The notes: generated from the sequence alone by a model not told the origin. Shown: positions 1 to 19,774, numbered from the stretch's first letter. The stretch is 64,000 nt of DNA from Candidatus Moraniibacteriota bacterium (GCA_016699875.1 CP064989.1:328788-392787), one strand, 5' to 3'. Numbers and translations are program-made.

Positions 1-65
1 GAATCGCACATGATCGAAGTGTTCGCCGAGCCGTTACCAGAGAGAGCTTCTACTGGTTCTTCCAT

Positions 66-1466
66 GTGTATTTCTCACATTACGTAAAATATGCCACAGC
101 TCCTTTTCAGAAGGAGATGTTTAGCCTACTTGAAAGCGATATCCATCAGACGCTTGTCTTCGTTGCTTTCCGAGGTTCAGGGAAATCGACGATCGTCACC
201 ATGGCCTATGTCCTCTGGGCCATTCTTGGTCGACAGGAAAAGAAATACTCGGTGATTACTGGTCAGACTCAATGGCAAGCCCGTCAGCACCTTCAGAACA
301 TTAAGCAGGAACTGGAACGGAATGATGTTCTACGAGGCGATCTTGGTCCGTTTCGAGAAGAGCGAGATGATTGGGGTTCGCTTTCTCTCGTTCTCTCGAA
401 CTATGGAGCGAAGATCACGGCTGCTTCGACAGAGCAAAGTATCCGAGGTATGCGTCACGGAGCCTATCGTCCGGATTTAATTGTCTGTGATGATGTAGAA
501 GATCTTTCCTCAGTGAAAACCTTGGAAAGTCGAGAAAAGACGTATCGGTGGTTTACAGGCGACGTGGTGCCATCTGGTGATCGAGAAACGAGAGTCATCG
601 TCGTTGGGAATCTTCTGCATGAGGATTCGCTTATTATGCGTCTTAGAAAAAATATTGAACAAGGCAATCTAGCCGGGCTTTTCAGAGAGTATCCGTTGCT
701 TGATACCGAAGATCGTTCTCTGTGGCCGGGGAAGTTTTCTGATGAAGCATCGATCCAAACCGAAAAGAAAAAAGTTGGAAGTTACAATGCATGGATGCGG
801 GAGTACATGCTACAGATTTTGCCGGAAGATGATCAGCTCGTGTTATCCGAATGGATTCACTCCTACGAAACATTTCCGAGCCAAGAAGAGCTCCCATTTT
901 GTTTCACGGTTGCTGCTGTTGATCCAGCAATCTCTAAAGAACAAAGTGCCGACTCTACCGCTATCATCACCGCCAAAGTATATGGGTACGCCGAAAAGCG
1001 CCGTATCTATATCTTGCCGTACCCGACCAACCAGCGTCTCAACTTTTCCGAACAGCTAGAAACAATCAAGAGACTAGCAGAAGAGCATCAAAGAAAGATT
1101 ACTCTTCTCATTGAAAATAATGGCTATCAAAGAGCGCTGGTGGAGATGCTCGAAAAGGAACGCTATCCGGTGAAAGGCGTTCAGAATATTGGGCAAGACA
1201 AACGGGCCCGCATTTCACTTATTACGCCGCACCTCAGAAGTGGGATGGTGCTCTTCCCTAAGAATGGTGCCGATGCTCTCATTCAACAACTTGTTGGATT
1301 TGGTGTGGAAAAGCACGATGACTTAGCGGATGCGCTCGCAACTTTGGTGACGTACTGCGTGGAGAATAACAGGCGGTCAGCAAGAGAGAGTCTGGAACTG
1401 TTTGTTAAGATGAATCCTCATCTGCAAAAGTATGATCCGGGAAGTTTATGGAATAAGCGGTTCTAA
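66..1466 (+). CDS. Phage terminase large subunit (ATPase + RNaseH-like nuclease), possibly prophage/satellite remnant
   Basis: Walker A-like 'VAFRGSGKST' near N-terminus, 'VCDDVEDL' Walker B-like, C-terminal 'AAVDPAISKEQSADSTAIIT' nuclease-fold motif typical of terminase large subunits; true start may lie upstream of window start region. Confidence 0.65.
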   Translation: MYFSHYVKYATAPFQKEMFSLLESDIHQTLVFVAFRGSGKSTIVTMAYVLWAILGRQEKKYSVITGQTQWQARQHLQNIKQELERNDVLRGDLGPFREERDDWGSLSLVLSNYGAKITAASTEQSIRGMRHGAYRPDLIVCDDVEDLSSVKTLESREKTYRWFTGDVVPSGDRETRVIVVGNLLHEDSLIMRLRKNIEQGNLAGLFREYPLLDTEDRSLWPGKFSDEASIQTEKKKVGSYNAWMREYMLQILPEDDQLVLSEWIHSYETFPSQEELPFCFTVAAVDPAISKEQSADSTAIITAKVYGYAEKRRIYILPYPTNQRLNFSEQLETIKRLAEEHQRKITLLIENNGYQRALVEMLEKERYPVKGVQNIGQDKRARISLITPHLRSGMVLFPKNGADALIQQLVGFGVEKHDDLADALATLVTYCVENNRRSARESLELFVKMNPHLQKYDPGSLWNKRF

Positions 1467-1467
1467 A

Positions 1468-2391
1468 CTATTCTTCTGACTTTGCAAGCTCATTTCTATT
1501 GCTATGTGTTTCTGATAAAAACACAGCCAGAGTTGATGCTGCCCCCACTGCTAAACGTGCATGACGCGCCCCTAAACCCTTTGTTCCTGCTACCTTCCCG
1601 TGACCAGTTCCATAATGGTTTCGCAACTCCGCGATACCCTGGGTAATAGTAGCTAAGTTACTAAGCAATCTCTTTATTGTTTCAGCTGCCTTTGCTTTTT
1701 CAGGGATATCTTGAGGAGTAAGTTCCAGTTCCTTGCTAGTAAGTTTTACTAACTCCGGTATGTCAGTATTTTTACCGAACTGAATACCTCGTTCTTCAAG
1801 GACTGTCTTGCAACATGTCTCCACTAATTCTTTAGCGGTTCCAATCGCAAGAGATACATCATTTGTAACCGCAGCTTCCATGCGAGTAATTTGCTGGGCG
1901 ATATACATTGGATCAAGACCTGTCAGTGTTGCACGAGCGGATTGTATACCCGGAGTAATCCCTGTGCCTATAATGGCTCGACCAGTATAGACTGGCTTAC
2001 CTGACATACGAGTACGTTCAACTAATTCAAAGCCATCATTTTTCAAAAATTGATTGAACATTTGATGAAGTTTCTCTGACTCCGTAACGTCAGATCGTAC
2101 AACCGGATGTATCGTCTCGCAGAGAAAACGTAAAAATACCTCATCATCCCCATTTAATAGATTGAGGCGTTCATCAGAAAAAACCCAGTCATCATCCCAA
2201 TCATAGTTCATAACACGATGGCGCCAAATATCTCCAGCTGCATCAGCATGTCTTGGATCGTAAGATGGCAAGGTCTCAAGATCAAAAATTCTCGATAAAA
2301 ACTCCGACTCCTCAAGACGGCCGGCCCATTTCACATTTTCAGCTCTTATTGCGTCGATAATATCCCGACGCGTGATTTGAGATATTTTCAT
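1468..2391 (-). CDS. Abi_C / HEPN-domain abortive-infection-like protein (AbiJ-like architecture)
   Basis: C-terminal 'ELRNHYGTGHG' = R-x6-H HEPN/Abi_C signature; N-terminal helical domain; start codon 2-3 nt after stop of upstream helicase (translational coupling). Confidence 0.6.
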   Translation of the reverse strand: MKISQITRRDIIDAIRAENVKWAGRLEESEFLSRIFDLETLPSYDPRHADAAGDIWRHRVMNYDWDDDWVFSDERLNLLNGDDEVFLRFLCETIHPVVRSDVTESEKLHQMFNQFLKNDGFELVERTRMSGKPVYTGRAIIGTGITPGIQSARATLTGLDPMYIAQQITRMEAAVTNDVSLAIGTAKELVETCCKTVLEERGIQFGKNTDIPELVKLTSKELELTPQDIPEKAKAAETIKRLLSNLATITQGIAELRNHYGTGHGKVAGTKGLGARHARLAVGAASTLAVFLSETHSNRNELAKSEE

Positions 2392-2393
2392 TA

Positions 2394-4115
2394 TTAATTA
2401 TTTAGGTTTTTAAAAAAGTTTGCGTCAACAATTACGTTACTTATTCTACTCGAGTCTATCCGGTCAATAAAAACAGATTGGTTCATACCAAACGTCGTTG
2501 CAAAACTTTTATTTGAAATTAAATAACACTGCTTTCGTGTTCTAGTTAACCCAACAATAAACTGACATATCTCTTTATCAGTTGGTTTTTTCTGTATCTT
2601 AGGAAATTCTGTATTGTTTAAACCAACCAGAAAAACAAAAGATGCAGACAGTCCCTTGCAACCATTAAAGGACGTTATCTTTATTGGACTTTGCTTTTTA
2701 TCTTTGTCTTCAGCCTCTGGATCTTTTTTTAGAACCTTCTTTAATTCTTCTATTGTAATAGCAAGCTTATCTGTAACAACCTCTTCTTCATCTTCAGAGA
2801 GAGATTCATCTTTCTTAACCTTTTTCAGTATCTCTAAAACAGCAAGATGTTCATCTTTAAAGTCGGCAGGTATGAGATCTACTAAAGAAACTTGGTTTTG
2901 TTCCGATTCTACAAGCATTTGCTTTAGAATCTTTTTCTTCATTTCTATCTCCGAAAGAACTCTCCAACCGAGATTTGATTGGTTGTTTTTTAACAGAACT
3001 AAGTATCCATCTAATAAGTTGAGCGTATCGTTGGTAGTCTCTTTAAAATCTATATCTTTGAATTTCTTTGATAAGTATCCGTACACCTGGTTTAAATACT
3101 GAGTCTGACCAGCAATAAGGACGCAAGGGTAGTTACCTTTTTGTGCCTTTACCCAATCCTCCGGAGTAATTTTGTTTATCTCACTCTCAATATATTTTCC
3201 GATGTAATTATAATTATCTGTTTTTCTCTGTAATGAACATCTCGCATGAATAATTTTCGGATACTGAACACTCTCGGCTTCCTTATCAGGCAGGTAGCAA
3301 ACATATTCCTTGTTGATCCTGCCGACGAGCCTACCTACTGCTTGTGCTCTGCCTATTATGTCGTGAACTGCGCTAATAATAACCTCTGTACATCGGCTAC
3401 AAAACGGCAACGAGAATCTTATAAAATTCTTATCCGAAGCCTTGTTTCTAATAAATCTTGGGGAGGCATCTTTTAAGTCCTCGTATACTGCCTGATCATC
3501 ATCTCCCACTATGAGTGTTGGGCTTAGCTTGGAAAGCTCTTCAAGAAAAGAAACTTCTAAAAGATTAAAATCCTGATACTCATCTACCACAATCTGACCA
3601 TATGTAGGGATCACGGAGCTATCCTTCTTGAAAGATTGAAGTACTCGGTATACCGCATCATCGTGCCCAACAGCGTTGTAGTAAGTAGCTCTTGTCAGAA
3701 AAAACTTTAATTCTTCTCCTTTATTAAGATTTTGAAATACCTTTCTAAAGTTTTTATACTTATCTCCCGTTAAGTATTTGTTATCTGACTTTATTACTAG
3801 AGGTAGCTTTGGAAAGTAATAAAAAGATGAGGTAAGCCCATCAATTTTTAAAGTATGTAGAAGCTTTTTGCAATAACCATGAAAAGTGTGGGCTTCCGCT
3901 AATCCAGATAGATCCTTCTTTAGCTCATCAGCTAAGTTATTTATAAAAGTTAGAGCTAGAGATTTTACTTTCTTTTGCTGTAATAAAGATTTAAAAGTAA
4001 AACTTTTTCCGGTACCAGCCCCAGCGATAACAAGCTTAAATCTGTCATCCGACTCGACAAGCTCTTTGGTTAGTCTATCCCTTTCATTCTTTTGAAACTC
4101 TTTAATATCTGACAT
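2394..4115 (-). CDS. UvrD/Rep/PcrA-like superfamily 1 DNA helicase
   Basis: Walker A 'AGAGTGKS', motif Ia 'TFHGYC', motif II 'VVDEYQD', motif III 'GDDDQAVY', motif VI 'VGLTRTRK'; very AT-rich coding sequence; lysine/glutamate-rich insertion near C-terminal third. Confidence 0.75.
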   Translation of the reverse strand: MSDIKEFQKNERDRLTKELVESDDRFKLVIAGAGTGKSFTFKSLLQQKKVKSLALTFINNLADELKKDLSGLAEAHTFHGYCKKLLHTLKIDGLTSSFYYFPKLPLVIKSDNKYLTGDKYKNFRKVFQNLNKGEELKFFLTRATYYNAVGHDDAVYRVLQSFKKDSSVIPTYGQIVVDEYQDFNLLEVSFLEELSKLSPTLIVGDDDQAVYEDLKDASPRFIRNKASDKNFIRFSLPFCSRCTEVIISAVHDIIGRAQAVGRLVGRINKEYVCYLPDKEAESVQYPKIIHARCSLQRKTDNYNYIGKYIESEINKITPEDWVKAQKGNYPCVLIAGQTQYLNQVYGYLSKKFKDIDFKETTNDTLNLLDGYLVLLKNNQSNLGWRVLSEIEMKKKILKQMLVESEQNQVSLVDLIPADFKDEHLAVLEILKKVKKDESLSEDEEEVVTDKLAITIEELKKVLKKDPEAEDKDKKQSPIKITSFNGCKGLSASFVFLVGLNNTEFPKIQKKPTDKEICQFIVGLTRTRKQCYLISNKSFATTFGMNQSVFIDRIDSSRISNVIVDANFFKNLNN

Positions 4116-4221
4116 AGCCCAGAATCCTCTAAAAACTAAACTTTAGGCAATTATAGCAAAAAGTCATTTTAGCCCCTGAAGGCCCCTAGACTTGTTTAGG
4201 GGTACGCGTCATTCATGGGGT

Positions 4222-5547
4222 ATGGATACCATGCAAATTCAAGGGAATACTATCAGACAACACATCCCTACGAATGTAAAGTACTGCCTGTACGCTAGAA
4301 AAAGCAGCGAATCGGAAGAGCGCCAAGTGCTCTCCATTGATTCTCAAATCAAGGAAATGCTACTCCTTGCTGACCGGGAAGGGCTCGAGATCGTTGCCAT
4401 GAAACGAGAATCTCACTCCGCCAAAGAAACGGGAGGTCGTCCCATCTTTAATGAAATCGTCGAAGAGCTTCGAGAAGGAAAATTCAACGGCATCCTGACA
4501 TGGGCACCGGATCGCATTTCTCGTAACGCTGGAGATTTAGGAAAAATCGTGGATCTCATGGATGCCGGAAAGCTAGAGGAAATCAGAACGTATAGCCAGA
4601 GGTTTACTAATAATCCTAACGAGAAGTTTCTTCTCATGATCCTTGGTTCGCAAGCAAAGCTTGAGAATGACAATCGAGGCATTAATGTAAAACGAGGGCT
4701 GCGTACAAGAGTTGAGATGGGTCTCTGGCCAGGCGTAGCCCCTATCGGCTATCTCAACCAGAAACACATCGAAAAGAAATGTCAGATCATCATTGATCCA
4801 GAGCGCGCACCCGTGGTCAAAAAGATATTCGAGAAGATGGCCCATGAGAAGTGGTCAGGCCGCAAGATATATCACTGGCTTAGATTCGAACTCAACTTTA
4901 AGAGTTTAAGCAATCACTATATTGCTCTTGGTAATATCTTCCGGATTCTTCAGAATCCTATTTACTACGGATCCTTCGAATACCCGAAGGGTTCTGGCAA
5001 CTGGTATCAAGGAAAACACGAACCAATCATCGACAAAGAGCTCTTTGACAAAACTCAAGAGCAATTGAAAAGGGACAAGATTGTTCGACAGAGCCGGGAG
5101 TTTGCTTTTACCAAACTCATGGTGTGCGGATTATGCGGATCAGGGATTTCTGCGGAAGAGAAGTATAAGCAGCTTAAAGATGGAACAACAGCCAAGTATA
5201 TCTATTACGGCTGCGGAAGATCCAAGGATCGACACTGCAAGAACCCATACCTGCGCGAAGAAGAATTAACTGAACAATTGATTAAAATAATGGATCAAGT
5301 CGATCTTAATCGAACGGGGGTACAGCACAAGTTTGAAGAGGAGCTAAAACGTTACAACAAGTTCAATCGAGGGGTGCTTGGCATCAGAAACCAAGCGCAA
5401 GAGCACCAAGATCTTGATCTGAAAACATATGCTAAGTATGTCCTTCGAGAAGGAACGAGCGAAGAGAAACGAGATCTCATGGGATGCTTCAAATCTAAGG
5501 TAAAAGTACTAAGAAAAATTATCACTATTGAACCAGAAAACCTATGA
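4222..5547 (+). CDS. Large serine recombinase (integrase/resolvase family)
   Basis: N-terminal resolvase catalytic region 'YARKSSESEERQVLSIDSQ', recombinase domain, C-terminal zinc-ribbon 'CGLCGS...YYGCGRSKDRHC'; ORF track starts at 4192 but ATG at 4222 (MDTMQIQ) gives canonical spacing before catalytic Ser. Confidence 0.8.
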   Translation: MDTMQIQGNTIRQHIPTNVKYCLYARKSSESEERQVLSIDSQIKEMLLLADREGLEIVAMKRESHSAKETGGRPIFNEIVEELREGKFNGILTWAPDRISRNAGDLGKIVDLMDAGKLEEIRTYSQRFTNNPNEKFLLMILGSQAKLENDNRGINVKRGLRTRVEMGLWPGVAPIGYLNQKHIEKKCQIIIDPERAPVVKKIFEKMAHEKWSGRKIYHWLRFELNFKSLSNHYIALGNIFRILQNPIYYGSFEYPKGSGNWYQGKHEPIIDKELFDKTQEQLKRDKIVRQSREFAFTKLMVCGLCGSGISAEEKYKQLKDGTTAKYIYYGCGRSKDRHCKNPYLREEELTEQLIKIMDQVDLNRTGVQHKFEEELKRYNKFNRGVLGIRNQAQEHQDLDLKTYAKYVLREGTSEEKRDLMGCFKSKVKVLRKIITIEPENL

Positions 5548-5656
5548 AACCACCCTAAAATTCAGAGTTGATTTTTGTCCTTCAAAAAGCTATACTTGTC
5601 GTACAATCTGTCCTAACCCTTAGAGGACCTCTGACTCTAAGGTATGGCGCAATAAA

Positions 5657-5800
5657 CCCTAGCTAATAGAGACGGCCTCATGGTCGGCACTTATTAGCTA
5701 GGTCGGTTCCCGAAAGGGTTCCGGGCATTCCGAAAGGTTTGTCGCCGTTCCGTGGGGCTTTTTGTATACCTCAAGAACGGAATTTAAATCCTAGCTAATA
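5657..5800. repeat. Hairpin/inverted-repeat cluster: 'ccctagctaata'(5657-5668) / 'tattagctagg'(5692-5702) inverted pair plus third direct copy 'cctagctaata' (5790-5800); additional 'cccgaaaggg' palindromes
   Basis: Read directly in sequence immediately downstream of the serine recombinase stop; candidate att/recombination or structured RNA region. Confidence 0.4.
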
Positions 5801-5818
5801 AATATAATCAATATAATT

Positions 5819-6361
5819 ATGAGTGAGCAAATTCAGTCTTTGGAACAGATTCAGAATGTTCCAACTAAGCGCCCTTGGTATAAGCGATGGTGGGTGATAG
5901 TTGTTGCAGTATTCATTATCTTCGGTGCCATAGGTGGTAGCGGAGGAGACAAGTCAAAAACTTCATCTACTAGTGAAAATTCAGTTGAAAAACAAGGCTC
6001 CGGCAACACAGTAGAAGAAACTACTGCAAAAACTGAAGAGAAGAAGCCAAGCGTACCAGCCGAATATAAATCTGCACTCAGCCAAGCTACTTCGTATGCT
6101 AATACCATGCATATGTCGAAAAAAGGAGTGTACGATCAGCTAGTTTCAGAATACGGCGGAAAGTTCTCTGCTGAAGCAGCACAGTATGGTATCGATAATG
6201 TAGAGACGGATTGGAATGCCAATGCCCTCGCCAAAGCAAAAACCTATCAAGATTCAATGCACCTCTCACCAGCAGCAATACGTGACCAACTAGTCTCGGA
6301 ACACGGTGAAAAATTCACTCAGACTGAAGCAGATTATGCCATTACAAATCTTAACAAATAG
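5819..6361 (+). CDS. Membrane-anchored protein with two Ltp-family (host cell surface-exposed lipoprotein / superinfection exclusion) repeats
   Basis: N-terminal TM helix 'WWVIVVAVFIIFGAIGG'; tandem ~50-aa repeats 'YDQLVSEYGGKFSAEAAQYGIDN' and 'RDQLVSEHGEKFTQTEADYAITNL' characteristic of Ltp domain. Confidence 0.55.
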   Translation: MSEQIQSLEQIQNVPTKRPWYKRWWVIVVAVFIIFGAIGGSGGDKSKTSSTSENSVEKQGSGNTVEETTAKTEEKKPSVPAEYKSALSQATSYANTMHMSKKGVYDQLVSEYGGKFSAEAAQYGIDNVETDWNANALAKAKTYQDSMHLSPAAIRDQLVSEHGEKFTQTEADYAITNLNK

Positions 6362-6393
6362 TGTGAACCCAAGAAGAGTATAGGGCTATAATA

Positions 6394-6420
6394 AAACTGC
6401 CAATCTGGCAGTTTTATTAT
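6394..6420 (+). terminator. Rho-independent terminator after Ltp-like gene
   Basis: hairpin 'aaactgcca-atc-tggcagttt' followed by T-rich 'tattat'. Confidence 0.55.
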
Positions 6421-6509
6421 ATCTATTGGCTCATTCCCACTGATCGTACAAAATAGGGTGTATCTAGTCTTAGAAGCGTCCTTGGTATAAACGATGGTGG
6501 GTAATAATC

Positions 6510-6737
6510 ATGGGGATAGGCATTCTTGTCATTATTATGGGAAGCTCTGAGGAATCAAATAGGTCGGTAACCCAAGAAACGAACGAAAACCCTGTAAAGG
6601 CGGTTGAATATGCAATAGAAGCCAAGAAGACATCATGGGATGATATCACCGTCTGGGCATATAAAAATAGTGAAAAAGGTTCGGCTATTGAAATGGCTGA
6701 AACGATGGGAATGAAAGAATACTCTACCTGTCATTAA
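6510..6737 (+). CDS. Small hypothetical membrane protein; N-terminal TM segment is a diverged duplicate of the Ltp-like gene 5' end
   Basis: ~27-bp near-identical DNA segment 'ccttggtataaRcgatggtgggtRata' at 5873 and 6480; no in-frame upstream ATG beyond 6510, may be pseudogene. Confidence 0.25.
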   Translation: MGIGILVIIMGSSEESNRSVTQETNENPVKAVEYAIEAKKTSWDDITVWAYKNSEKGSAIEMAETMGMKEYSTCH

Positions 6738-7732
6738 TAATGCAAACATTGGTACTCCAATGATAACCAAAGCCAACGCCTTCACCATTTCTTCAATCAG
6801 AAATGAAAATGAAGACCCCTGACCATCATTACAACAGTCAGGGGTTAATCCTTACCCTTACAAAGTACTCAATATTTCATTGCGCTCAACCCAAGACCAT
6901 AGGCAACACTTGTGAAGGCATCGACTGGAAGTATTTTCCCCTCCCCAAACCGGTCCAGGAAGATTCTCCTGACTCTTGGAATAAAGGAGGAACCTCCTGT
7001 TAAAAGAACGGTGTCCACATCCTGTAAAGAGATCCCAGCCCGAGACACTGTATCGTCCACGCAGACTTCAATCTTCTGAAACTTGTCTTCTGCCAGAGTT
7101 TCAAATGCATCTCTTGTGATTTCCTCCCGGATCACGATGCCTTTCTCGGAAAATTCGATGATGGAGGATTCCCTATCAGAGAGTTCTCGCTTCACCTTCT
7201 CGATAGCTCGGAACAGCATATAGCCAAGATTTTCGATAATCAGAGTGTGAAGATTTTTCACTGCTTTCTGATCCTCGTCGGACACCCCTCGAAGCGAGTG
7301 GATTATTTGAAGCGTCTTCTTGTCGCGAAGCTGTGGAATCATGTGCCACTCACAGAGCGTCATCGGAAGCCAAATTGGAAGCTCAAGAATTTGATCAGGC
7401 AACGATCCGCGAATCTTTGTGTCTCTGCCAAAGTGTTTTGCAAGTTCGTGCCACATGATAGAAGCATCAAAAGCATCGCCCGCGATATACACTCCGCCAG
7501 TTGCGAGAATATCTTTTTCACGATCTTCTCTCGAATCACGTTTTCCACCACGGAGCCGCATAACTACGAAGTCAGACGTTCCACCGCCGAAGTCACCCAT
7601 GAGCACCAGTTTCTCCTCCCCCTTTCGAAGGTCTGACTCATAGGAAAGCGTCGCCGCGATCGGTTCGTACACGAAGTGCACATTTGCAAACCCAGAACGA
7701 AGAGCTGCTGCCCGCAATCTTTCTTCCGCTAA

Positions 7733-8580
7733 GAACCTGTTTACAATCTTCTGGTACACTGAGGACATAATCCTCAAACCAAAAGAACCATGTATCCAAG
7801 CGACATAACCCGAGAACAATTCGAACACATCAGACCATTTCTCGAATCAACCAGGAAGAGAACCAAACCAAAGACACTTGATTCCTATGACGTATTCAAC
7901 GCTCTGCTCTACATTCTGGTCACGGGTTGCCAATGGAGGGCACTTCCCAAGGATTATCCAAAATGGCAGAGTGTCTATCGACACTTCCTTGTCTGGAAGG
8001 AACGAAAAACAAACAGACAGAGAGTATGCTTGAGCAAGTCTTAAAAAAATTGGTCGAACAAGAACGTATGAAAAATGGCAAACAATGCAAAACCAGTTTC
8101 TGCATCGTTGATGCTCAAAGTGTCAAGAATACAGATACGGCTCGAGAAAAAGGTTATGATGCAGGAAAAAAAGTTTCCGGTATCAAGCGACATATTCTCG
8201 TTGACACCAACGGATTGCCGCATGCGTTCACGGTAACCACTGCTAACGTCACTGATCGAAATGGAGCTATCCAAGCCGTCAAGGCAAACAAAAAAACACC
8301 TTTCACGGGTGGAGAAACTCTTGACTGATGGTAGTTATACCGGAGAAAACTTCGCCAAAGCGATCAAAGCATGTATCGGTGCGGAAGTGGGAGTAGCTAA
8401 ACGAAACGAATTGCATACGTTTGCCGTTCTTCCTCAGCGCTGGGTGGTCGAGAGAAGCTTCTCCTGGCTGGAGAAATGCCGAAGGCTCTGGAAGAATTGC
8501 GAACGGACACTGGATTCGAGCTTACAGATGATGGTTTTAAGTTTTGCTCGATTGTTGTTGAAAAGATTGTAAACAGGTTC
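7733..8580 (+). mobile_element. IS5-family insertion sequence (IS1031/ISL2-like), copy 1, with 3-bp TSD 'taa'
   Basis: Terminal inverted repeats 'gaacctgtttacaatctt' / 'aagattgtaaacaggttc'; flanking direct 'taa' at 7730-7732 and 8581-8583; internal DDE transposase reading frames; second copy at 58231..59080. Confidence 0.75.
7790..8572 (+). pseudogene. IS5-family DDE transposase, split into three frames by homopolymer indels (copy 1)
   Basis: ORFs 7790..8044, 7927..8328, 8261..8572 together equal the orfA/orfB of copy 2; A-run lengths differ from copy 2 at three sites (A5 vs A6 at the KERK site, A7 vs A8 at the LKK slippery site, A7 vs A6 at the KANKK site). Confidence 0.65.
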
Positions 8581-9096
8581 TAAGAGATCAAGCTCTCTGT
8601 CTTCTGAAAAGAGTACGGGACGACCCATGACAACCGTGTCCACGACATGTCCCACATGGAGTTCGCCGCGATGCTTGATAGTTTTCAGAATGAGCGCGAT
8701 TAAATCTTCGATTTCATAGCGCCTGCCAAAAACATAGGTTTCTTTGAAGCTCTTACTTGGCAGAAATGCCTTGATGGATTGCATGAGACGACCGTAGGTT
8801 CCGCCGTAATCAACGTATTGGTCAATAGCCTCCTGACCAATATTGATACCACCTTCCTCGTCAAAGAAAAGTACCGATTTGAGGGTGTGTGGCGATGGAC
8901 TCGATGGGTCAATATCAGCAATTGCGACGTTATTTCCCTTCGCTATTGCCAAAACAGAATTTGTGGTTCCAAAATCAAGACCAAATGCTATAGACATGAG
9001 AATATCCTCGTTTCTAATAAGTTTGAAAGGTGCTTCCCGTGTATATCACAAACTCTTCTAAATATCAATGGCTCGAATTTCTGAATAAAAAGAGTC

Positions 9097-9735
9097 TTAC
9101 AAGTTCATGCATCTTCGAATGTTATCAAGAGTCACAATTTTACCATTCAAATTCGTTCCTGGATTCTTGAAAATTTTATCGTGAATGCTAGAGCACCATA
9201 AATCAGTAGGGTTGCTTTCTGTGTTGATAACACAACCGCCCACTGCTAATGCCCATTTGGCATTAAACTTTTCGATAGACTCAAAATACTTGTTCGAAAG
9301 ATAGATATCTTCCGTTTCCTTCCTATTATTCACGCTCAAGCATCTTGCGCGAGAAATATTATACCCACAACGAACCCAAACAAACACATTCGGAAATATA
9401 ATTTCCTCAATTTTCTTCTTAAGGAGATCGAAGTATGCCTCTCTTATATCAGCCAATCCCAATTCATACAGAGCGAATACGTGAGCGCTCACGGAAACAA
9501 AGCTTCTGTCCAAAAGATTGACGCCGGTTTGAAGAAAACTTTTTCGATATGTATCCACTGAGAGATACCGGTCTTGCAAGTTCAGATACTCACTTTTATA
9601 AAAGCTCCTCTGTGGGACACCGTCAATAAAAAGAGAGTGTTCATCAACAGACACGTAGCCGTAGTTATCTGAGAGAAACCGAATGAGCGTTGTCTTTCCC
9701 GTGTACACATTTCCATCGAATGAGATGACTCTCAT
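9097..9735 (-). CDS. P-loop NTPase, nucleoside/nucleotide kinase-like
   Basis: Walker A 'FDGNVYTGKTTL' at N-terminus, ~210 aa, dNK/thymidylate-kinase-like size; 4-bp overlap with upstream radical SAM gene. Confidence 0.4.
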   Translation of the reverse strand: MRVISFDGNVYTGKTTLIRFLSDNYGYVSVDEHSLFIDGVPQRSFYKSEYLNLQDRYLSVDTYRKSFLQTGVNLLDRSFVSVSAHVFALYELGLADIREAYFDLLKKKIEEIIFPNVFVWVRCGYNISRARCLSVNNRKETEDIYLSNKYFESIEKFNAKWALAVGGCVINTESNPTDLWCSSIHDKIFKNPGTNLNGKIVTLDNIRRCMNL

Positions 9736-10604
9736 AAGGCCAATTTACACTTTTTACACAAATCCGTGTAAACATCCGATCCGTTGTTATAAATAGCCTG
9801 GCGGTATTTTTTATACATCTCGGAGTTCCATATATCTTCCATAGAACTCTCCGTCACATTTCCCAGCTTGTGCTTCCATTTCCAGTCCATGCAGCAGAGA
9901 ATCACGTCTCCTCTAAAATTTATGTGCATTCGTTCCAATGGTCTTCTCTGCTCGCAGCCATAGACAAACTCCTTGTTTATGTCGTTCGAAAACCTCTCAA
10001 CATTACCACTTCTATCAAAGAATCCCCAGAATTCGAATTTGATAAATGTCTCCCTGCAGAAATCTCTCGCCAACAAAATGTCTTCTTGGGTTATTTCTGG
10101 ATAATCAACCATGACAAGCGACACCTGTCCTATGTTCGCGCGCAATTCTTTGTTTTGGGAAAGAGTATCCAAATTTTTCTTTGTTTTTTTCCAATTTAAT
10201 CCAGGCATCACTTTCCGATAAGATTCTTCTGTAAAACCGAAAACACTAAGCCGCAATTCTTTTATGGTAAAGGCTTTCAGTTTATTCTGCATTTCCTCGT
10301 TAAGCTGTGAGACATTAGTGGACACTTCTATCTCCACGCCCGGACATTTCTGGTTAATATAAGATAGCCTTTCGAATATGAGTGGATCGAGTAAAGGCTC
10401 ATTATTGAAATACGGGATGATCCGAATGCCCCAGGGATTCTTTATTTGATCAATAATCTTTTTGAAAAGATCCATAGACATAATGCCGCCCGGCAATTTT
10501 CCTGCGACATCCCTATGCGGACAAATAATACATCCGGCATTACAAGACGATATGGTTTGAATCTCTATGGCTGATGGGAACGGATTGTATGACACCTTTT
10601 TCAT
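9732..10604 (-). CDS. Radical SAM enzyme with C-terminal SPASM/twitch-like Cys cluster
   Basis: 'CNAGCIICP' CxxxCxxC motif near N-terminus; C-terminal 'CCMDW...LGNV...EDIWNS...CKKCK' auxiliary cluster region. Confidence 0.7.
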   Translation of the reverse strand: MKKVSYNPFPSAIEIQTISSCNAGCIICPHRDVAGKLPGGIMSMDLFKKIIDQIKNPWGIRIIPYFNNEPLLDPLIFERLSYINQKCPGVEIEVSTNVSQLNEEMQNKLKAFTIKELRLSVFGFTEESYRKVMPGLNWKKTKKNLDTLSQNKELRANIGQVSLVMVDYPEITQEDILLARDFCRETFIKFEFWGFFDRSGNVERFSNDINKEFVYGCEQRRPLERMHINFRGDVILCCMDWKWKHKLGNVTESSMEDIWNSEMYKKYRQAIYNNGSDVYTDLCKKCKLAL

Positions 10605-10610
10605 AGAGGC

Positions 10611-12167
10611 TCATCTAGTTCTCTCGAGACCCGAATAAATCTGGGAAAGAATATCATCCCTGCCTAATCGTGAAACGCCGTTTATAAAGGTAAAATATTC
10701 AATCTTCAGTTTGAAAAATTTTTCAGAAAATTTTTCAGTGAAATCTTTTTGGAAGCAATCATTCATTGAGTCACCTTTCCCTACTTTAGCAATCAAGGAG
10801 GAGAGAAAAACATAAATACTATCCATTAGCTCTTTCTGAGAAAGACAGAATCTTTGATGCTCAAGGCTAAGTTCCTCGCCCAGATGGATATTTTCTTTCT
10901 GAATTAGACCATATAGAATACCCATCGTTGTACAATAATATTCAAACTCGTAAGCAATTCCTCCAAAATTCCCACTAAAAATACTCTTAGCTTTCTCAAA
11001 GAGCCTCCCGACATCGTCATTCAAAAATCTGTAGCCATATGTTATATCTCGGTAGCGCGCTTCAGTACTTATAAGACCACCCTCAAGGAGTTTCTTATGC
11101 ATAAAAGATCCGGGTATCACACGAACTGGTTCAAGTATCACGCCTAATCTGAATAATTTCCCTATTTTGTACAAATATTCTAGATTCATTTGGATGTCAT
11201 CAAGCGTCGAAAATGGCTCAAAGGTTATATATCCAATATGAACATTAACATTCAATCGATTCAGCTTCTCCCGAATCTCAATAAATGAATCTTTTTTAAT
11301 TGGTTTCCTAAATAAAATCTGCGATTTTTCCGAAGCGTTCTCCACACCAAGAAAAACCCTAACAAGACCAGCATCTGCCAGTGCATTTAACACTTCATCA
11401 TGAATAAATGGGTTACATCGTAAATATACATACATTCTTATATCAAGCTTTCGTCTTTTTATTTCCGAACAAAATTTCAAAATGCGATCATTATCTCTTC
11501 CAGACGCCCAAAAAACACTATCATTGAAGATGAAAAGCTTTTTCCCAATTTCCTTGTTTAGGAGCTCCATTTCATCTACAACTTTAACCGGGTCTCGAAA
11601 ATCCATTACTGCTACAGTTTTCTCTTTACGGGTTGCAAGCGGTATATGACAGAATGAACAATTATAGATACAACCTCGAGAAGCTTCTATATTTATATAA
11701 CTTCCTAGCTCTTCTTTCTCCACATCCCTTGCTGGAAATGGCAATTGATTAAGCAGAATATATGCTTCACTCGGCACATATTCCACGATTGATTGATTTT
11801 CCCGCCAAATCCCCCCTTTACATTCTTTTATTGATACGTTTCGTTGAATCATTTCAAGCAACTTCCCAGCAACACTCTCAACCTGATCAATGATGATTCC
11901 ATCTAACCATTCATTTTCCTCCAGCATGGATTTTGCATTCAAAGATGCAAACGGTCCACAGAAGAAGATTTTAGACACTTCGCCACCACCTCTCATGATC
12001 TTAAATAATGGAAACATGATAGCAAAGTCTTTAAAATTTGGCTTTGCAATAATAACGAGTCTTTCATTGGAATTCTCACTCAAAATGCTTCCAAAAGAAT
12101 GGAAATTTTCCTTTTCCAAAAGGCATATATCAACAATGAATCCCTTACCCCTTAAAATAGGCAGCAA
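10611..12167 (-). CDS. B12-binding domain radical SAM (class B) enzyme
   Basis: N-terminal cobalamin-binding-like domain followed by 'ASRGCIYNCSFCH' radical SAM motif, ~520 aa. Confidence 0.7.
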   Translation of the reverse strand: MLPILRGKGFIVDICLLEKENFHSFGSILSENSNERLVIIAKPNFKDFAIMFPLFKIMRGGGEVSKIFFCGPFASLNAKSMLEENEWLDGIIIDQVESVAGKLLEMIQRNVSIKECKGGIWRENQSIVEYVPSEAYILLNQLPFPARDVEKEELGSYINIEASRGCIYNCSFCHIPLATRKEKTVAVMDFRDPVKVVDEMELLNKEIGKKLFIFNDSVFWASGRDNDRILKFCSEIKRRKLDIRMYVYLRCNPFIHDEVLNALADAGLVRVFLGVENASEKSQILFRKPIKKDSFIEIREKLNRLNVNVHIGYITFEPFSTLDDIQMNLEYLYKIGKLFRLGVILEPVRVIPGSFMHKKLLEGGLISTEARYRDITYGYRFLNDDVGRLFEKAKSIFSGNFGGIAYEFEYYCTTMGILYGLIQKENIHLGEELSLEHQRFCLSQKELMDSIYVFLSSLIAKVGKGDSMNDCFQKDFTEKFSEKFFKLKIEYFTFINGVSRLGRDDILSQIYSGLERTR

Positions 12168-12368
12168 GCGACCCTATCGTCAGAGACGCTCCCGATTGGG
12201 AGAATAATGATCTAAAATAAACTAGCTTTATTCTGATTGGCTTTTCCAGAAGAGCGTCTTTTTCCATAGGACAAAATATGCTAGCATTATTAGGACGTTG
12301 CATAGTAAACTGAATATTGTTTAAAGTCAATGTGATCAAGACTAGAAGAAAATATCTAAAGAAACATT

Positions 12369-12812
12369 ATGGATAAGGGACTTATCGTGCACGCACTTCT
12401 CTTCAATGAGAAGCAAGAAGTTCTGCTCATTCGGAGATCGTTGAGTGAGGATGTTTTGCCAGGCGTCTGGGATATTCCCGGGGGCACTCTCCATGATGGA
12501 GAGGATCCAGTAGAAGGTGCGATTAGAGAAACTACGGAAGAGGTTGGGCTTAATATAAAAAATCTCAGTTTATTTCACTACACATCAAACATTGATCAGA
12601 AAAAGAATAAACAGTTTATTCGCCTTATATTTATCGGTACCTGTGATAGCTTCGATGTGGTGTTAAACCCGGAAGATCATGATAAATATCAATGGGTACC
12701 AAGTAGCCATCTTCCGCAGAACATGGAACTAGTAGATTACCTTCCTGAGGTTTTCGATATATTAAAAGAAAAGAAACATCTACTGGCTAATTACTATGTT
12801 CATGCAGAATGA
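12369..12812 (+). CDS. Nudix hydrolase
   Basis: Nudix box 'GGTLHDGEDPVEGAIRETTEEVGL'. Confidence 0.75.
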   Translation: MDKGLIVHALLFNEKQEVLLIRRSLSEDVLPGVWDIPGGTLHDGEDPVEGAIRETTEEVGLNIKNLSLFHYTSNIDQKKNKQFIRLIFIGTCDSFDVVLNPEDHDKYQWVPSSHLPQNMELVDYLPEVFDILKEKKHLLANYYVHAE

Positions 12813-14163
12813 GTGTTTTGCTTTTTCTGATAGGATAGTTGAAAACTACAAAACCAAAATAACGAAAGGTTGATAACCATCCGGAAAGACCATGGAGCAT
12901 ATAAAAGAAGAAGCTTCCCGAAAGCAAATATACGAAAATTACCAGCGTACCAGTAGCATCTTTTCCCCGAAAAATGATCCAGGAAAGAAAATTCGGCACT
13001 ACCAAAAAGCATACGTATACCAAGAAGAAAGATGCCCATGTAGCTGTTGAACCTGAAATAGCGGTACAAAGAAACAAAAAAAGCAAGAATGACGGTCCCA
13101 CGATCCAATAGATAGCATGAGAAAATAACTTCAAAGAGAAAATCAAAAGACGATCCCTTTTTACAGAGGGATCATTTTTTGTTATCTGAAAATAATAGTC
13201 AAATGCCTGCAAAGGCCCGAAAAACCAACTAGCCTTCTGAAAAAACAGACTCTTTATGCTATCCGGAGAATAGGAAACATCAAAAAACGGAATCGGCTCA
13301 ATAACATACCCGTAATAATTCAGTTGCAAACCAAAAATAGCATCTTCGTTATGCATATCTTCGGAAAAACCACCGACCTCCTTGTAAATTCTCTGCGAAA
13401 AGAATAGCCCATGCCCAATGCAATAATTCATGGGAGCAAACAAGGACGGTCGCGCATTTCTCTCTTTGAATTGATCCAAAGAATGCGGAATCTCAAAACC
13501 GATGCTCCACCTATTTTGCCACAGCGACGCGGAAAGTAGGATGGATTTTCTTAAAAAATTAGATATGCGGGAAATGATCGGATAGTTCCCAAGATAATTT
13601 CCGTATTGCTGAAAAACTTGGGGAGGATTTTCTCCCATTCGGACACTACGCACAACTCGCCAGACCCAATAAAACGTCCTGCTATCCGGTCTTGAATCAG
13701 CATTGTAAAGAGCAAAATAATCCCCCGCTTTTAACTGAAAGGAGCCTCTTATAAAATTCACTGCGTAGTTCACCTGATGTGCCATCTTTCCTCCCGTATA
13801 AGGGTAGTGTACACAAATTATGTTGTCATATTTCTTCTCAAGTAACTTTGACATGGCAACAGTATCTCTTCCACTTCCCTTATAATTGAGATTATATTCC
13901 TCTTCCGTTGTCACTATTATCACTTTAGACCCATCAAATGATTGGAGGATGCTAGAAAAGTATTTTATTGTATTCTCCAGAATATCTATTTCATCAAGTA
14001 CTGGTATCAGAACAAAAAATCGAACACCGTTATTCCCATTAGCAGACGATATATTTTCAGATACATTCAACCTCAACCAGAGAACAGTTCTAAAGATTCT
14101 TAGTATCCATAATGCTGATACAAAGAGAAAGCCTATTGCAACTGCAATAAAAAATCCATTCAT
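12787..14163 (-). CDS. Processive family 2 glycosyltransferase with C-terminal multi-TM region
   Basis: GT2 fold start 'VLIPVLDEIDILENTI', 'QNRW' (QxxRW) motif of processive GT2 synthases, several C-terminal hydrophobic helices. Confidence 0.6.
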   Translation of the reverse strand: MNGFFIAVAIGFLFVSALWILRIFRTVLWLRLNVSENISSANGNNGVRFFVLIPVLDEIDILENTIKYFSSILQSFDGSKVIIVTTEEEYNLNYKGSGRDTVAMSKLLEKKYDNIICVHYPYTGGKMAHQVNYAVNFIRGSFQLKAGDYFALYNADSRPDSRTFYWVWRVVRSVRMGENPPQVFQQYGNYLGNYPIISRISNFLRKSILLSASLWQNRWSIGFEIPHSLDQFKERNARPSLFAPMNYCIGHGLFFSQRIYKEVGGFSEDMHNEDAIFGLQLNYYGYVIEPIPFFDVSYSPDSIKSLFFQKASWFFGPLQAFDYYFQITKNDPSVKRDRLLIFSLKLFSHAIYWIVGPSFLLFLFLCTAISGSTATWASFFLVYVCFLVVPNFLSWIIFRGKDATGTLVIFVYLLSGSFFFYMLHGLSGWLSTFRYFGFVVFNYPIRKSKTLILHEHSN

Positions 14164-14210
14164 AAATATCCAACTTTTTTAAAAAAGCGTTTGACCATCA
14201 CAGCCAAACG

Positions 14211-14879
14211 CTACTCATTCTCCGCAGAGCAACCAACTAGCTTGATTAGCTCTTCCACTGAAAAAAATATAATTGCTTCTCGGATCGCTTCTACCTGTGA
14301 GTCCGAGCAATGAAACAGATTCCTAATCGGATGCTCTTTAGGAATCCTATAGCTCGATCGTATCTTCCTTCTTAACTCAAGAAGCTTGTCGGTTACAGAT
14401 TCACCTGCAAGAACTATAAATAATGTCGGACTTGAACAGAAATACTCAATAAGAACAGTCTCCCATTCCGGCTCGAAAAAGTACGGGTAGAGACGAAATA
14501 GATTTGATTCCTCGATCAGCACTCTCTTCTCACCAACAATTCTCCCAATCGACTCCAGCTCTGTCCGGATAAACCCATCAAGATTCCTTTCATAGGCATC
14601 TGGTTTGATAGAACAAAATCCAAATTTTTTCAGCCTACTTAGCCTTGAATCGTCAGGAAGTGGGTCCAAAACTCCTCTCCACCATCTTTTCTCATTCCCA
14701 ACTTTGATGTATTCACCATTCTCATCCTCAAAAATAAAACCATGTGCATCTGGTCCAACATAAAGCCTTAATTTCTGGCCATCAACTCGGACTAGACAAA
14801 TTGGCCTATTCTTTGAATCAAGAATTTGATTTTTGCGAATCTCATCTTCACTAGTGGGATATGCTACTAAACCAATCAT
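14211..14879 (-). CDS. Hypothetical protein
   Basis: Long ORF co-oriented with the GT2 gene; no motif recognised. Confidence 0.3.
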   Translation of the reverse strand: MIGLVAYPTSEDEIRKNQILDSKNRPICLVRVDGQKLRLYVGPDAHGFIFEDENGEYIKVGNEKRWWRGVLDPLPDDSRLSRLKKFGFCSIKPDAYERNLDGFIRTELESIGRIVGEKRVLIEESNLFRLYPYFFEPEWETVLIEYFCSSPTLFIVLAGESVTDKLLELRRKIRSSYRIPKEHPIRNLFHCSDSQVEAIREAIIFFSVEELIKLVGCSAENE

Positions 14880-15400
14880 GCTATACCTCCCAAATAGAAT
14901 TCGAAAGAACTGATATTATCCAGATATAAACCAAAACTGGACTTTACAATATACACATATACTATGATTCCGTCAAGAGCCGTGCCAATGATAACACTAC
15001 CTCCCCATCTCCAAAAACGGATCCGCGTTACGAAACACAAACTACGCTATATTCGACGGATTATCGAACAATTTTGTCAGATTCTGACGCCATCAGGAGA
15101 ACCCCTCCTCCTTATCGCTACTAGAAAAAGAGCCCTTCCAAATACTTGGCTAGTTAGTCCGTAATCGTTTTAATGTCTAATCATCCAGCTTTTTCTTTAT
15201 GTCGATAAAAAGCACTGCTAGTTACCCGCCAAAGATCCCAACTGCGGAGGGTATTCGGATGACAGCTTAGTAATTCACACGCCTCTCTCGGAGTGTGAGA
15301 ATCTCTGGATATTCCCCAATTTTTTGATTTCTCTTTCAAGGGCATAACTTACTATAAGTTTACATAAGCAAAAGCTCTCAGTAAAGAAATACTGGATACC

Positions 15401-15428
15401 AAAAAACCACCAATTTGAGTGGTTTTTT
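15401..15428 (-). terminator. Hairpin terminator downstream of tRNA-Ser
   Basis: 'aaaaaaccac-caatttga-gtggtttttt' palindrome. Confidence 0.5.
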
Positions 15429-15479
15429 GCAGTACCCGTTACTAAGGCACTCGGGTCATCCGATACTAAATATACAGTG

Positions 15480-15566
15480 CGGAGAGGCAGGGATTCGAAC
15501 CCTGGAAGGGGTTTCCCCCTTAACACATTAGCAGTGTGCTGCTTTCAGCCGCTCAGCCACCTCTCC
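15480..15566 (-). tRNA. tRNA-Ser (anticodon GCT), long variable arm, CCA not encoded
   Basis: Reverse complement folds as GGAGAGG-acceptor, D-arm 'GCTGAGCGGCTGAAAGC', anticodon loop 'CTGCTAA', long variable arm, T-arm 'GGGTTCGAATCCC', discriminator G. Confidence 0.8.
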
Positions 15567-15954: not shown

Positions 15955-16266
15955 ATGGCACAGAAGCTCTACGTCGGGAACCTCTCATACGGCACCACGG
16001 ACGACGGTCTTCGAGAAGCTTTCTCGGAAGCGGGATCCGTGACGTCGGCGAGCGTTATTACCGATCGTGCCACCGGTCGTTCGAAAGGCTTCGGCTTTGT
16101 CGAAATGGCCAGTGATGCGGATGCCGAAAAAGCCATCTCCATGTGGAATGGGAAGGATCTCGATGGTCGCACCCTCGTGGTAAACGAGGCTCGTCCGTTC
16201 GAACCCCGCCCACGCCAAGGTGGAAATGAAGGCGGTTACGGTAGCAGCAACAAGCGGGACTGGTAA
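15955..16266 (+). CDS. RNA-binding protein with RRM domain and Gly-rich tail
   Basis: RNP-2 'LYVGNL', RNP-1 'KGFGFVEM' motifs. Confidence 0.85.
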   Translation: MAQKLYVGNLSYGTTDDGLREAFSEAGSVTSASVITDRATGRSKGFGFVEMASDADAEKAISMWNGKDLDGRTLVVNEARPFEPRPRQGGNEGGYGSSNKRDW

Positions 16267-18329: not shown

Positions 18330-19211
18330 TTACCTTGCCTGATGAATCACTCGCTGCGGAAACGGAATATCAATACCCTCTTTATCAAAAGCTATTTTGA
18401 GACGCTTGCGAAGCTCGCCTGTCACGTCCCATTGCTTGATCGGCTGCGTATCTCCGAGAATCTTGATCACGATCGCCGAATCGCCAAAATCGTCGACGCG
18501 AAGGAATTGAGGTGGCGCAATAATCATATCTTTCCAATCCGGATCCTCGGCAAGTTCCGCGCCCACGCGATTCACCACCGAAATCACCTGTTCCAAATCG
18601 GAGTTGTAAGCAATGCCGATATTGAGATTGACACGAGAGAAATTCTTGGACATATTGGACACCTGTTTCACCTCTCCATGCGGCACATGATGCACGACAC
18701 CGTCAAGATCGCGAAGCGTCGTCATGCGCAGACTGATATCCTCAACCAGCCCGCATGTCGTATCGAAACACACCACATCGCCGATGCGATACTGATTCTC
18801 CATGATAATAAAGAGTCCGCTAATAAGATCGCGAATGAGATACTGCCCGCCAAAGCCGAAGGCAATGCCCGCAACCCCTGCCGCCGCAAGGAGCGGCCCA
18901 ACAGCAAAGCCAAGCTCAGAGAGCATCATCAGCCCGACCAAAACCCAGAGCAAAATACCAGCCGATGTCGAAAAGATACGAATCAACGTGTCCTCTCGCT
19001 TCCGTTCCGCCTCTTTGCTGAGAAATCGACTCGGCACTACCAGCTTTCGCACCGACTTCTCAATAAATACCCCGACAAATCGCTGAACCAGCAGCGCCGC
19101 AAAAACGATAGCCACTATCTTCACCCCATGATCCACAAACCACGGCGCAACACTTCGCACGATATCGTGAGTAAAATTTTGCATAGAGAAGTCCGTATTC
19201 TTAAGAATCAA
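18330..19211 (-). CDS. Mechanosensitive ion channel family protein (MscS-like)
   Basis: three TM helices followed by beta-domain 'RIGDVVCFDTTCGLVEDISLRMTTLRDLDGVVHHVPHG'. Confidence 0.7.
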   Translation of the reverse strand: MILKNTDFSMQNFTHDIVRSVAPWFVDHGVKIVAIVFAALLVQRFVGVFIEKSVRKLVVPSRFLSKEAERKREDTLIRIFSTSAGILLWVLVGLMMLSELGFAVGPLLAAAGVAGIAFGFGGQYLIRDLISGLFIIMENQYRIGDVVCFDTTCGLVEDISLRMTTLRDLDGVVHHVPHGEVKQVSNMSKNFSRVNLNIGIAYNSDLEQVISVVNRVGAELAEDPDWKDMIIAPPQFLRVDDFGDSAIVIKILGDTQPIKQWDVTGELRKRLKIAFDKEGIDIPFPQRVIHQAR

Positions 19212-19237
19212 TAACAGGTAAAGAGGATGAAGGGAGG

Positions 19238-19597: not shown

Positions 19598-19610
19598 TTA
19601 TCTCTCGTTG

Positions 19611-19697
19611 CGGTGGGGGTGAGATTCGAACTCACGGTACCGTTTCCGGTACGGCAGTTTTCAAGACTGCTACCTTAAACCACTCGGTCACCCCACC
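19611..19697 (-). tRNA. tRNA-Ser (anticodon TGA), long variable arm
   Basis: RC: acceptor GGTGGGG, D-arm, anticodon loop 'CTTGAAA', long variable arm 'CCGTACCGGAAACGGTACC', T-arm 'GAGTTCGAATCTC'. Confidence 0.8.
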
Positions 19698-19774
19698 ATA
19701 TTGCAAACATTTCCAGACTAACAAGAAAGAAACGGCTTGTAAAACCGTGCTATACTGTACGCATCCGCAAAGAA

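Follow-up and report, generated by a model that had tools for sequence, protein, structure and literature searches.

What kind of element sets a phage terminase gene beside an integrase gene and carries no capsid or tail genes? The question is raised by a 64,000-nucleotide stretch of a Candidatus Moraniibacteriota bacterium genome (GCA_016699875.1 CP064989.1:328788-392787), hereafter the window, whose left end holds genes for a terminase large subunit (TerL), defense proteins, a large serine recombinase (LSR), and an Ltp-family superinfection exclusion protein. A preliminary description, made from the sequence alone, had read positions 1-6500 as a phage-derived integrative module, either a degraded prophage or a satellite resembling the phage-inducible chromosomal islands (PICIs). 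The window is chromosomal DNA from a bacterium of the Candidate Phyla Radiation (CPR, or Patescibacteria), which makes up a large share of bacterial diversity, has genomes of about 1 Mb, and is regarded as having few prophages and mobile elements. We found that window positions 1-15482 are the right-hand part (about 14 kb) of an integrative island of about 20 kb at the 3' end of a tRNA-Ser(GCU) gene. The island belongs to a family of 12-20 kb CPR islands that share one co-oriented conserved backbone, encoding a ParB-N6/N4 methylase, a terminase small subunit (TerS), TerL, and the LSR. Our confidence in these descriptive claims is high. The explanation that best accounts for the whole, which we hold with slightly better than even confidence, is that this integrative CPR island propagates as a phage satellite and shields its host by means of its cargo.

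TerL (1-1466, + strand) matches the terminase large subunit family PHROG 38 (E = 1e-84) and, over residues 284-425, Pfam Terminase_6C (E = 7.5e-9), and its profile matches the ATPase domain of T7 gp19 (4bij), placing it with the Terminase_6, T7 gp19-like ATPases. The profile search that the preliminary description had named as able to overturn its assignment thus confirmed terminase homology. The packaging ATPase motifs (Walker A FRGSGKST, Walker B DLIVCDDVED) are intact, with G68, S69, K71, S72, T73, D173, D174, and E176 invariant in 42 TerL homologs, as are the acidic nuclease residues D317, D409, D450, and D453 of an RNase-H-like C-terminal domain. The gene had been given as 66..1466, which is right for its end and wrong for its start: the reading frame is open back to base 3, full-length homologs are 494-500 aa, and alignment to the related Logan contig L001 leaves just 28 nt (about 10 codons) of TerL beyond the window edge, so the GTG at 66 is internal and the gene runs off to the left.

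The LSR (4192-5547, +) has the three domains of a large serine recombinase (Pfam Resolvase, 1.9e-19; Recombinase, 1.9e-15; Zn_ribbon_recom, 1.2e-8), matches the integrase family PHROG 95 (2.6e-63), and finds its nearest solved relative in the SPbeta integrase SprA/YokA (E = 8e-16). The preliminary description had placed it at 4222..5547; the open reading frame (ORF) may open earlier, at TTG 4192, with the first ATG at 4222. No tyrosine integrase was found in the window beside the tRNA or among the commonest cargo families of relatives, which leaves the LSR as the sole candidate recombinase. The two ORFs adjoining the tRNA-Ser, considered as possible tyrosine integrases, encode a GT2 glycosyltransferase and an NDK-like protein. 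With terminase and LSR confirmed, the backbone is of phage type, as had been proposed, and family searches upheld all of the earlier gene assignments (terminase, defense genes, serine recombinase, and Ltp).

The island nevertheless lacks the rest of a phage. Portal, capsid, and tail genes are absent from the window and from the 10 kb upstream in relatives, and hidden Markov models (HMMs) of structural genes, built from the nearest true phages, match nothing in the whole 64 kb window and match just 1 of 80 genome loci of the family. Neither annotation nor these HMMs revealed capsid or tail genes following the module, in agreement with the preliminary description. Its remark that a terminase next to an integrase is unusual for an intact prophage holds as well; in 79 of the 80 genome loci, too, the search detected no such genes. 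We found no near-identical DNA to the window in phage records, and the nearest TerL among deposited phage genomes is only 28% identical.

Relatives supply the part of the backbone that lies beyond the window. In the Logan contigs L001-L005, whose TerL is 97% identical, a ParB_N-N6_N4 methylase (449 aa), TerS (138 aa, assigned by weak PHROG TerS matches), and TerL are followed by an LSR 25-32 bp downstream (25 bp in L001). The same four backbone genes occur in L007/8 (TerL 69% identical), and in L006 (71%) a type I restriction-modification (R-M) system comes after TerL. To find more distant members, we scanned IMG/VR and one genome per GTDB species with the alignment of 42 TerL homologs (a genome scan with the single TerL had matched nothing), which gave 350 TerL relatives in IMG/VR and at least 492 in GTDB species genomes. 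Most genome records name CPR lineages, including Saccharibacteria, Paceibacterota, Peribacteria, Dojkabacteria, and Moraniibacteriota. Others (such as L099, L103, L127, L143, L147, and L160) are labeled Gammaproteobacteria, Bdellovibrionales, Methanoregula, Omnitrophota, or Nitrospirota; unless such bins are mislabeled or contaminated, the island family extends outside the CPR.

Clustering all ORFs in 165 loci yielded only four widespread gene families: TerL (164 loci), ParB/methylase (146), TerS (121), and LSR (109). No other family occurs in more than 34 loci, the next being a LexA/CI-like S24 repressor (34). The adjacency of TerL and LSR, after methylase and TerS, recurs in more than 100 independent loci in different CPR species, with a gap of no more than 300 bp in 47 of 102 loci, where spacers can be as short as 12-90 bp, and of up to 9 kb in others. 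Some Peribacteria-type islands (L097, L098, L101, L107, L123, L012, L016) have a second TerL-like ORF between TerL and LSR (for example, L098 11545-13104).

The association with an LSR follows TerL phylogeny closely. Among loci with TerL at least 50% identical and at least 9 kb of sequence downstream, 46 of 54 have a same-strand LSR and 0 of 54 a portal gene, whereas loci with TerL at most 41% identical have an LSR in 0 of 11 and a portal gene in 9 of 11, together with protease and HK97-type capsid genes. In a neighbor-joining tree, all 19 portal- or capsid-linked TerLs fall into a clade of 21 that includes 0 of the 107 LSR-linked TerLs; nearest neighbors agree in class in 126 of 126 cases, and no portal gene was found linked to the window-type TerL clade. 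Both genes are under strong purifying selection: between the window and L001, TerL has a ratio of nonsynonymous to synonymous substitution rates (dN/dS) of 0.063 and the LSR one of 0.033. Pairwise distances of TerL and LSR are correlated (r = 0.58, reached in 0 of 999 permutations), as expected if both genes travel together.

The island's right boundary lies at a tRNA gene, the integration target. A 35-bp motif that we call M (15448-15482), the candidate attR core, overlaps the last 4-5 nt of tRNA-Ser(GCU) (15479-15566, -). The window contains it a single time, and chance would not be expected to produce it; a second copy, identical at 32 of 35 positions, sits at the left end of the island in L001 (4366-4400), with core-type genes on one side and the first element gene on the other. 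In related genomes with the same tRNA-Ser (100% and 99% identity), similarity stops exactly at the tRNA 3' end, or the assembly ends there. From motif M, the tRNA-Ser, and this break in similarity, we place the right end at 15482. The extent of 1-6500 first proposed was therefore too short, since the island runs on to the tRNA-Ser at 15479. Its estimated length of about 19.6 kb is the sum of 5.6 kb left of the TerL stop, measured in L001, and 14.0 kb in the window. GC content is 0.36-0.47 as far as about 15 kb and about 0.50 thereafter. On the other side, the 10 kb upstream in L002 encode UvrA, a CYTH protein, and further proteins not of phage type.

The same arrangement is found in other members of the family. 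Where a tRNA gene follows the LSR, as it does in 22 genome loci, the first one lies on the other strand and points its 3' end at the LSR (22 of 22), as in the window. In relatives, a direct repeat of 13-51 bp extends over the 3' end of the tRNA and has its second copy 12-17 kb upstream, beyond the methylase. Examples are a 19-bp repeat at tRNA-Gln in L133 (copies 17 kb apart), an 18-bp repeat at tRNA-Lys in L102 (12.2 kb apart), a 51-bp repeat at tRNA-Ser(GCU) in L058 (14.4 kb apart), and repeats of 28 and 20 bp at tRNA 3' ends in L116 and L113. Relatives bounded in this way are consistently 12-17 kb long and sit at tRNA 3' ends. Some islands occur in tandem (L117, 7041-8123 and 19790-20869; L129, with LSRs at 921-2372 and 19123-20442), and in three cases two copies share one IMG/VR contig (L019/L026, L040/L048, L033/L052), so tRNA sites are apparently hot spots of island accretion. 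Just beyond the tRNA-Ser, the window encodes an RRM protein (15955-16263) identical in sequence to QQS16059.1 from a Candidatus Moraniibacteriota metagenome-assembled genome; the AbiJ-family protein of the window likewise matches, at 100% identity, a protein on a contig of this phylum. Three contigs of YkuD relatives (L176, L180, L183), from independent metagenome assemblies of related Moraniibacteriota, end at or just past this tRNA-Ser/RRM region, and a fourth (L182, 5215-5480) runs from an identical tRNA-Ser into unrelated sequence. These contig breaks and the divergence in L182 are consistent with a hypervariable site; more distant relatives show no synteny.

Between TerL and LSR, the window copy carries defense genes. 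Window 1-1466 aligns to L001 through the TerL stop and alignment returns from 4186, so 1467-4185 is a cassette in place of the 25-bp spacer of L001 (9991-10015); its GC content is 0.36, compared with 0.45-0.47 for the backbone. The cassette encodes an AbiJ-family abortive infection protein (1468-2391, -; AbiJ_NTD3, 5e-60; Abi_C, 1e-27) and a UvrD-like SF1 helicase (2394-4115, -; UvrD-helicase, 4e-15; AAA_19; UvrD_C). The GajB-like PADLOC matches of the helicase are partial and weak (best 5e-20), and we rejected a Gabija system (GajA + GajB), as no GajA (OLD-family nuclease) is present and the helicase's neighbor is AbiJ. What had been termed a "defense pair" is two adjacent genes in the same orientation, 2 nt apart. 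AbiJ homologs of 70-78% identity are spread over many phyla, however, and in those sampled the neighboring gene varies and is never a helicase; on these sampled contexts we rejected a conserved two-gene system. The genes are therefore best called two cargo genes, possibly co-transcribed.

The TerL-LSR gap is one of three fixed cargo slots in the family, the others being downstream of the LSR and upstream of the methylase. Among 135 ORFs from the TerL-LSR slot of other members, the main families are components of type I, II, and III R-M systems; ResIII, SNF2, and PIF1 helicases; reverse transcriptases with bAvd, as in diversity-generating retroelements (DGRs); PLD and SNase nucleases; and small DUF4352/tRNA_anti-like membrane proteins. 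The commonest families in this slot include neither structural proteins nor integrases. Bounded elements also carry ThsB-TIR and 8xMP genes. The family's cargo is mostly anti-phage, comprising R-M systems, reverse transcriptases and DGRs, Abi proteins, TIR, PLD, helicases, and Sie-like membrane proteins. Family searches of four recurrent ORFs (fam5, a 324-362 aa zinc-ribbon protein, fam19, and fam21) gave no match.

The second cargo slot of the window, downstream of the LSR, encodes a membrane-anchored protein of the superinfection exclusion family (5819-6361, +). The preliminary call of an Ltp-family gene is borne out by two Ltp repeats (Pfam Lipoprotein_Ltp in two stretches, E = 1.6e-46; PHROG 4980, 9e-65). 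The protein is cysteine-free and so has no lipobox cysteine; its N-terminus, KRPWYKRWWVIVVAVFIIFGAIGG, reads as a transmembrane anchor rather than a lipoprotein signal peptide. L001 holds a DUF4429 gene at this position, and its similarity to the window returns at 6474, into an HSP70-like gene. A 33-nt direct repeat (5867-5899 and 6474-6506, 91% identical) encodes the start of the membrane anchor, KRPWYKRWWVI. At the second copy, which is accompanied by a short ORF (6474-6737, +), the gene has no start codon upstream of the anchor. This segment is probably a remnant of the neighboring anchored-protein gene of L001 (12085-12564), and the repeat may be a recombination point for swapping ectodomain cassettes (Ltp, DUF4429, DUF4352).

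Ahead of the Ltp gene, in the position of a 5' leader, is a LOOT RNA (Rfam RF03000; 5610-5743, +), scoring 59.8 bits against a gathering score of 46.4. It begins 62 nt past the LSR stop and ends 75 nt ahead of the Ltp start, and directly 5' of it is a sigma-70-like promoter match (TTGATT-17-TATACT; 5568-5596, +), a candidate by consensus alone. LOOT reaches the Rfam threshold in 6 of 19 related loci, and an island-specific model built from seven matches, the window included, finds it in 40 of the 165 loci (among them L001 11440-11573, L007 12941-13081, L090 3378-3518, and L118 8006-8122). About 27-31 of the 40 copies are 45-95 nt upstream of a same-strand ORF, wherever the LSR lies, and the products of about 29 of the downstream ORFs are small proteins with an N-terminal anchor (Ltp, DUF4352, DUF4429, or a zinc ribbon with a transmembrane segment). 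In an alignment of 38 element copies, which was fitted to the model and therefore favors the structure, 89.8% of cells are paired, compared with 67.3% in shuffles and 25-43% when the structure is slid, and 215 cells are compensatory, compared with 67 in shuffles. These observations point to a role for LOOT as 5' leader of the exclusion-type "moron" cassette on the islands, apparently acting in cis and not as a free-standing small RNA. LOOT was reportedly published as an orphan metagenomic motif by Weinberg and colleagues in 2017. It is not discussed in the main text of that paper (Weinberg et al., 2017; PMC5737381). Its place as leader to genes for membrane-anchored exclusion-type proteins gives the motif a genomic context and opens its function to testing.

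How might such an island spread? We propose that the LSR integrates and excises it at the tRNA gene. A LexA/CI-like S24 repressor, which many relatives encode (in 34 loci, divergent from the backbone and about 3.5 kb upstream), would silence the backbone operon (fam5-methylase-TerS-TerL-LSR) until induction, probably at a time when a helper phage infects the cell or is itself induced. The island's TerS and TerL, with the ParB-methylase, would then recognize island DNA and pump it into helper-phage procapsids. In this way the island would spread as a phage satellite, its cargo meanwhile protecting the host. TerS and TerL are not known to act in anything but packaging into procapsids; from this, the absence of all structural genes, and the analogy with PICIs, capsid-forming PICIs (cf-PICIs), and PICI-like tycheposons, we infer packaging. 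We give even chances to this mechanism of self-packaging into helper phage capsids, which draws on that analogy.

Several results weigh against a satellite. We saw no helper phage, excised circle, packaged form, or pac/cos site for these islands; no terminal repeats or circular contigs among the island contigs; and no empty site among the contigs of the YkuD relatives. A conserved replication gene is missing from the family clusters of the 165 loci, and the LexA-like repressor was not seen in the window's own lineage (L001). The left end of the window copy lies outside the window and is placed by reference to a relative that is 95% identical in nucleotide sequence. At 18-51 bp, the direct repeats exceed the short cores of most characterized LSRs; no second recombinase was found, and an unrecognized one is conceivable. 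Shared host phylogeny could explain part of the co-divergence of TerL and LSR. Lastly, about 23 of the 80 genome loci are, by their labels, nominally non-CPR.

Some of these points would suit a mobile defense island whose LSR serves for integration only and whose terminase module (TerS and TerL with the ParB-methylase) is either a weapon, which would disturb packaging by an infecting phage through competing for or cleaving its DNA, or a means of in situ headful packaging that would begin at the integrated island and carry along cargo and adjacent host genes, as in lateral transduction or gene transfer agents. Such an island would account for the overwhelmingly anti-phage cargo, the lack of conserved replication genes in 165 loci, the direction of the backbone operon, which reads toward the cargo slot, LSR, and tRNA, and the fact that excised forms were not seen among contigs. 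The co-inheritance of TerL and LSR and the clean att-like boundaries instead fit movement as a unit, and a full TerS and TerL under strong purifying selection across phyla exceeds the needs of interference. Known satellites also interfere with their helpers, so this explanation overlaps with satellite spread, and we consider it unlikely.

Decay is a far less probable explanation. The island would be what remains of a temperate CPR phage after deletion of the genes for structure and lysis, with those for packaging and integration left behind as decaying remnants. The backbone genes are indeed of phage type, distant TerL relatives are found in contigs with methylase, portal, protease, and capsid genes, and an insertion sequence (IS) and a split gene in the window show that some cargo has decayed. 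The backbone has not: we rejected the degraded prophage offered by the preliminary description, and regard it as very improbable, because of purifying selection (dN/dS 0.03-0.06), invariant catalytic residues and motifs, the TerL-LSR distance correlation, the recurrence of one capsid-less layout in more than 100 loci of different species, often with a short TerL-LSR gap, and the separation of LSR-linked from portal-linked TerLs in the tree. The consistent 12-17 kb size of bounded copies speaks against it as well. An autonomous small virus or virus-like element, with a capsid gene too divergent to be recognized among the unannotated ORFs, could draw on the recurrent ORFs without a family match (fam5, the zinc-ribbon protein, fam21) and on the many copies listed as viral contigs in IMG/VR. 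A capsid gene should be universal, however, and beyond the backbone no family exceeds 34 of 165 loci; moreover, just 7-12 kb are left after the backbone, mostly filled with recognizable defense cargo. We consider this very unlikely.

Among known systems, the CPR island works most like a phage satellite. Like PICIs, including the Staphylococcus aureus pathogenicity islands (SaPIs), and like the phage-inducible chromosomal minimalist islands (PICMIs), it is a site-specific island of 10-20 kb with a phage-type repressor in many members, its own TerS, accessory or defense cargo, and no tail genes. Capsid hijacking would be its presumed lifestyle by the same comparison. It differs from PICIs and SaPIs in using an LSR rather than a tyrosine integrase. 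Classical PICIs encode TerS or Rpp only, whereas the CPR island carries a full TerL and a ParB-methylase; no primase or replication module and no capsid-remodeling genes were found in it, and its hosts are CPR bacteria. With an LSR, a TerL, no conserved replication gene, a repressor in 34 and TerS in 121 of 165 loci, it does not qualify as a PICI or SaPI. The cf-PICIs are similar in being satellite-type islands that encode their own TerS and TerL. In addition, a cf-PICI has genes for a major capsid protein, portal, protease, and head-tail connectors, and no such capsid-module genes are present in the CPR island. A satellite, as first suggested, is therefore what fits best, while membership in the PICIs or cf-PICIs does not stand.

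The tycheposons of Prochlorococcus resemble the CPR islands in size (10-20 kb), integration at tRNA genes, streamlined host genomes, tandem arrays, and modular cargo; tRNA targeting, cargo modules, and tandem arrays are all found in the CPR family. Tycheposons use tyrosine recombinases in 910 of 937 cases and LSRs in a minority, and have primase/helicase replication hallmarks; some are PICI-like with a packaging gene (TerS or major capsid protein), never observed together with cargo (Hackl et al., bioRxiv 10.1101/2020.12.28.424599). The CPR islands, in contrast, are typified by LSR, TerS, TerL, and methylase, with cargo the rule, and no tyrosine integrase or primase is among their conserved or top cargo families (the tycheposon profiles themselves were not used). 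Temperate Firmicutes phages of the LSR type (SPbeta with SprA; TP-J34/TP901-1 type) share with the window island a homologous LSR and an Ltp-type gene beside the integrase, and share a CI/LexA-type repressor with its relatives. These phages are complete, with portal, head, and tail genes after the terminase, whereas in the CPR backbone the terminase is followed by the integrase.

Full-text searching, with subscription-only papers outside its reach, found no description of this architecture. It is possible, at rather less than even chances, that the islands form an unrecognized CPR-wide class of satellites, the first with TerS, TerL, and a ParB-methylase but no capsid gene, with a tRNA-targeting LSR, and that this class is the main vehicle for defense systems, DGRs, and LOOT-controlled exclusion genes. 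One conserved island type shared by hundreds of CPR species would give these bacteria a major channel for gene flow and anti-phage immunity. A satellite would also imply undescribed helper phages of CPR bacteria, and one with a whole terminase yet no capsid protein would embody a solution unlike those of SaPIs, P4, PICI-like elements (PLEs), and cf-PICIs. For genome engineering, there is practical interest in an LSR clade that targets tRNA genes and has fixed cargo slots. For viral catalogs, it matters that IMG/VR lists many island copies as viral contigs despite their absent structural genes.

The rest of the window island, right of the Ltp gene, is further cargo. An HSP70-like gene (6869-8997, -) is split into two ORFs (6869-7828 and 8434-8997) by an IS4/IS5-family IS (7729-8584, +) with 22-nt inverted repeats, whose own transposase is fragmented into three ORFs. 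A low-GC (0.37-0.40) cluster at 9097-14879 on the - strand encodes deoxynucleoside-kinase-like (dNK-like), rSAM-SPASM, second radical SAM, GT2 glycosyltransferase, and NDK-like proteins, with a NUDIX protein on the + strand (12369-12812). PADLOC gives weak matches here to PDC-M51A and, for the HSP70-like gene, PDC-M61B, and the cluster could be a nucleotide-modifying or novel defense module. Far outside the island, a tmRNA gene that an ARAGORN scan of the window did not report is present at 43888-44287 (+; Rfam, 102 bits).

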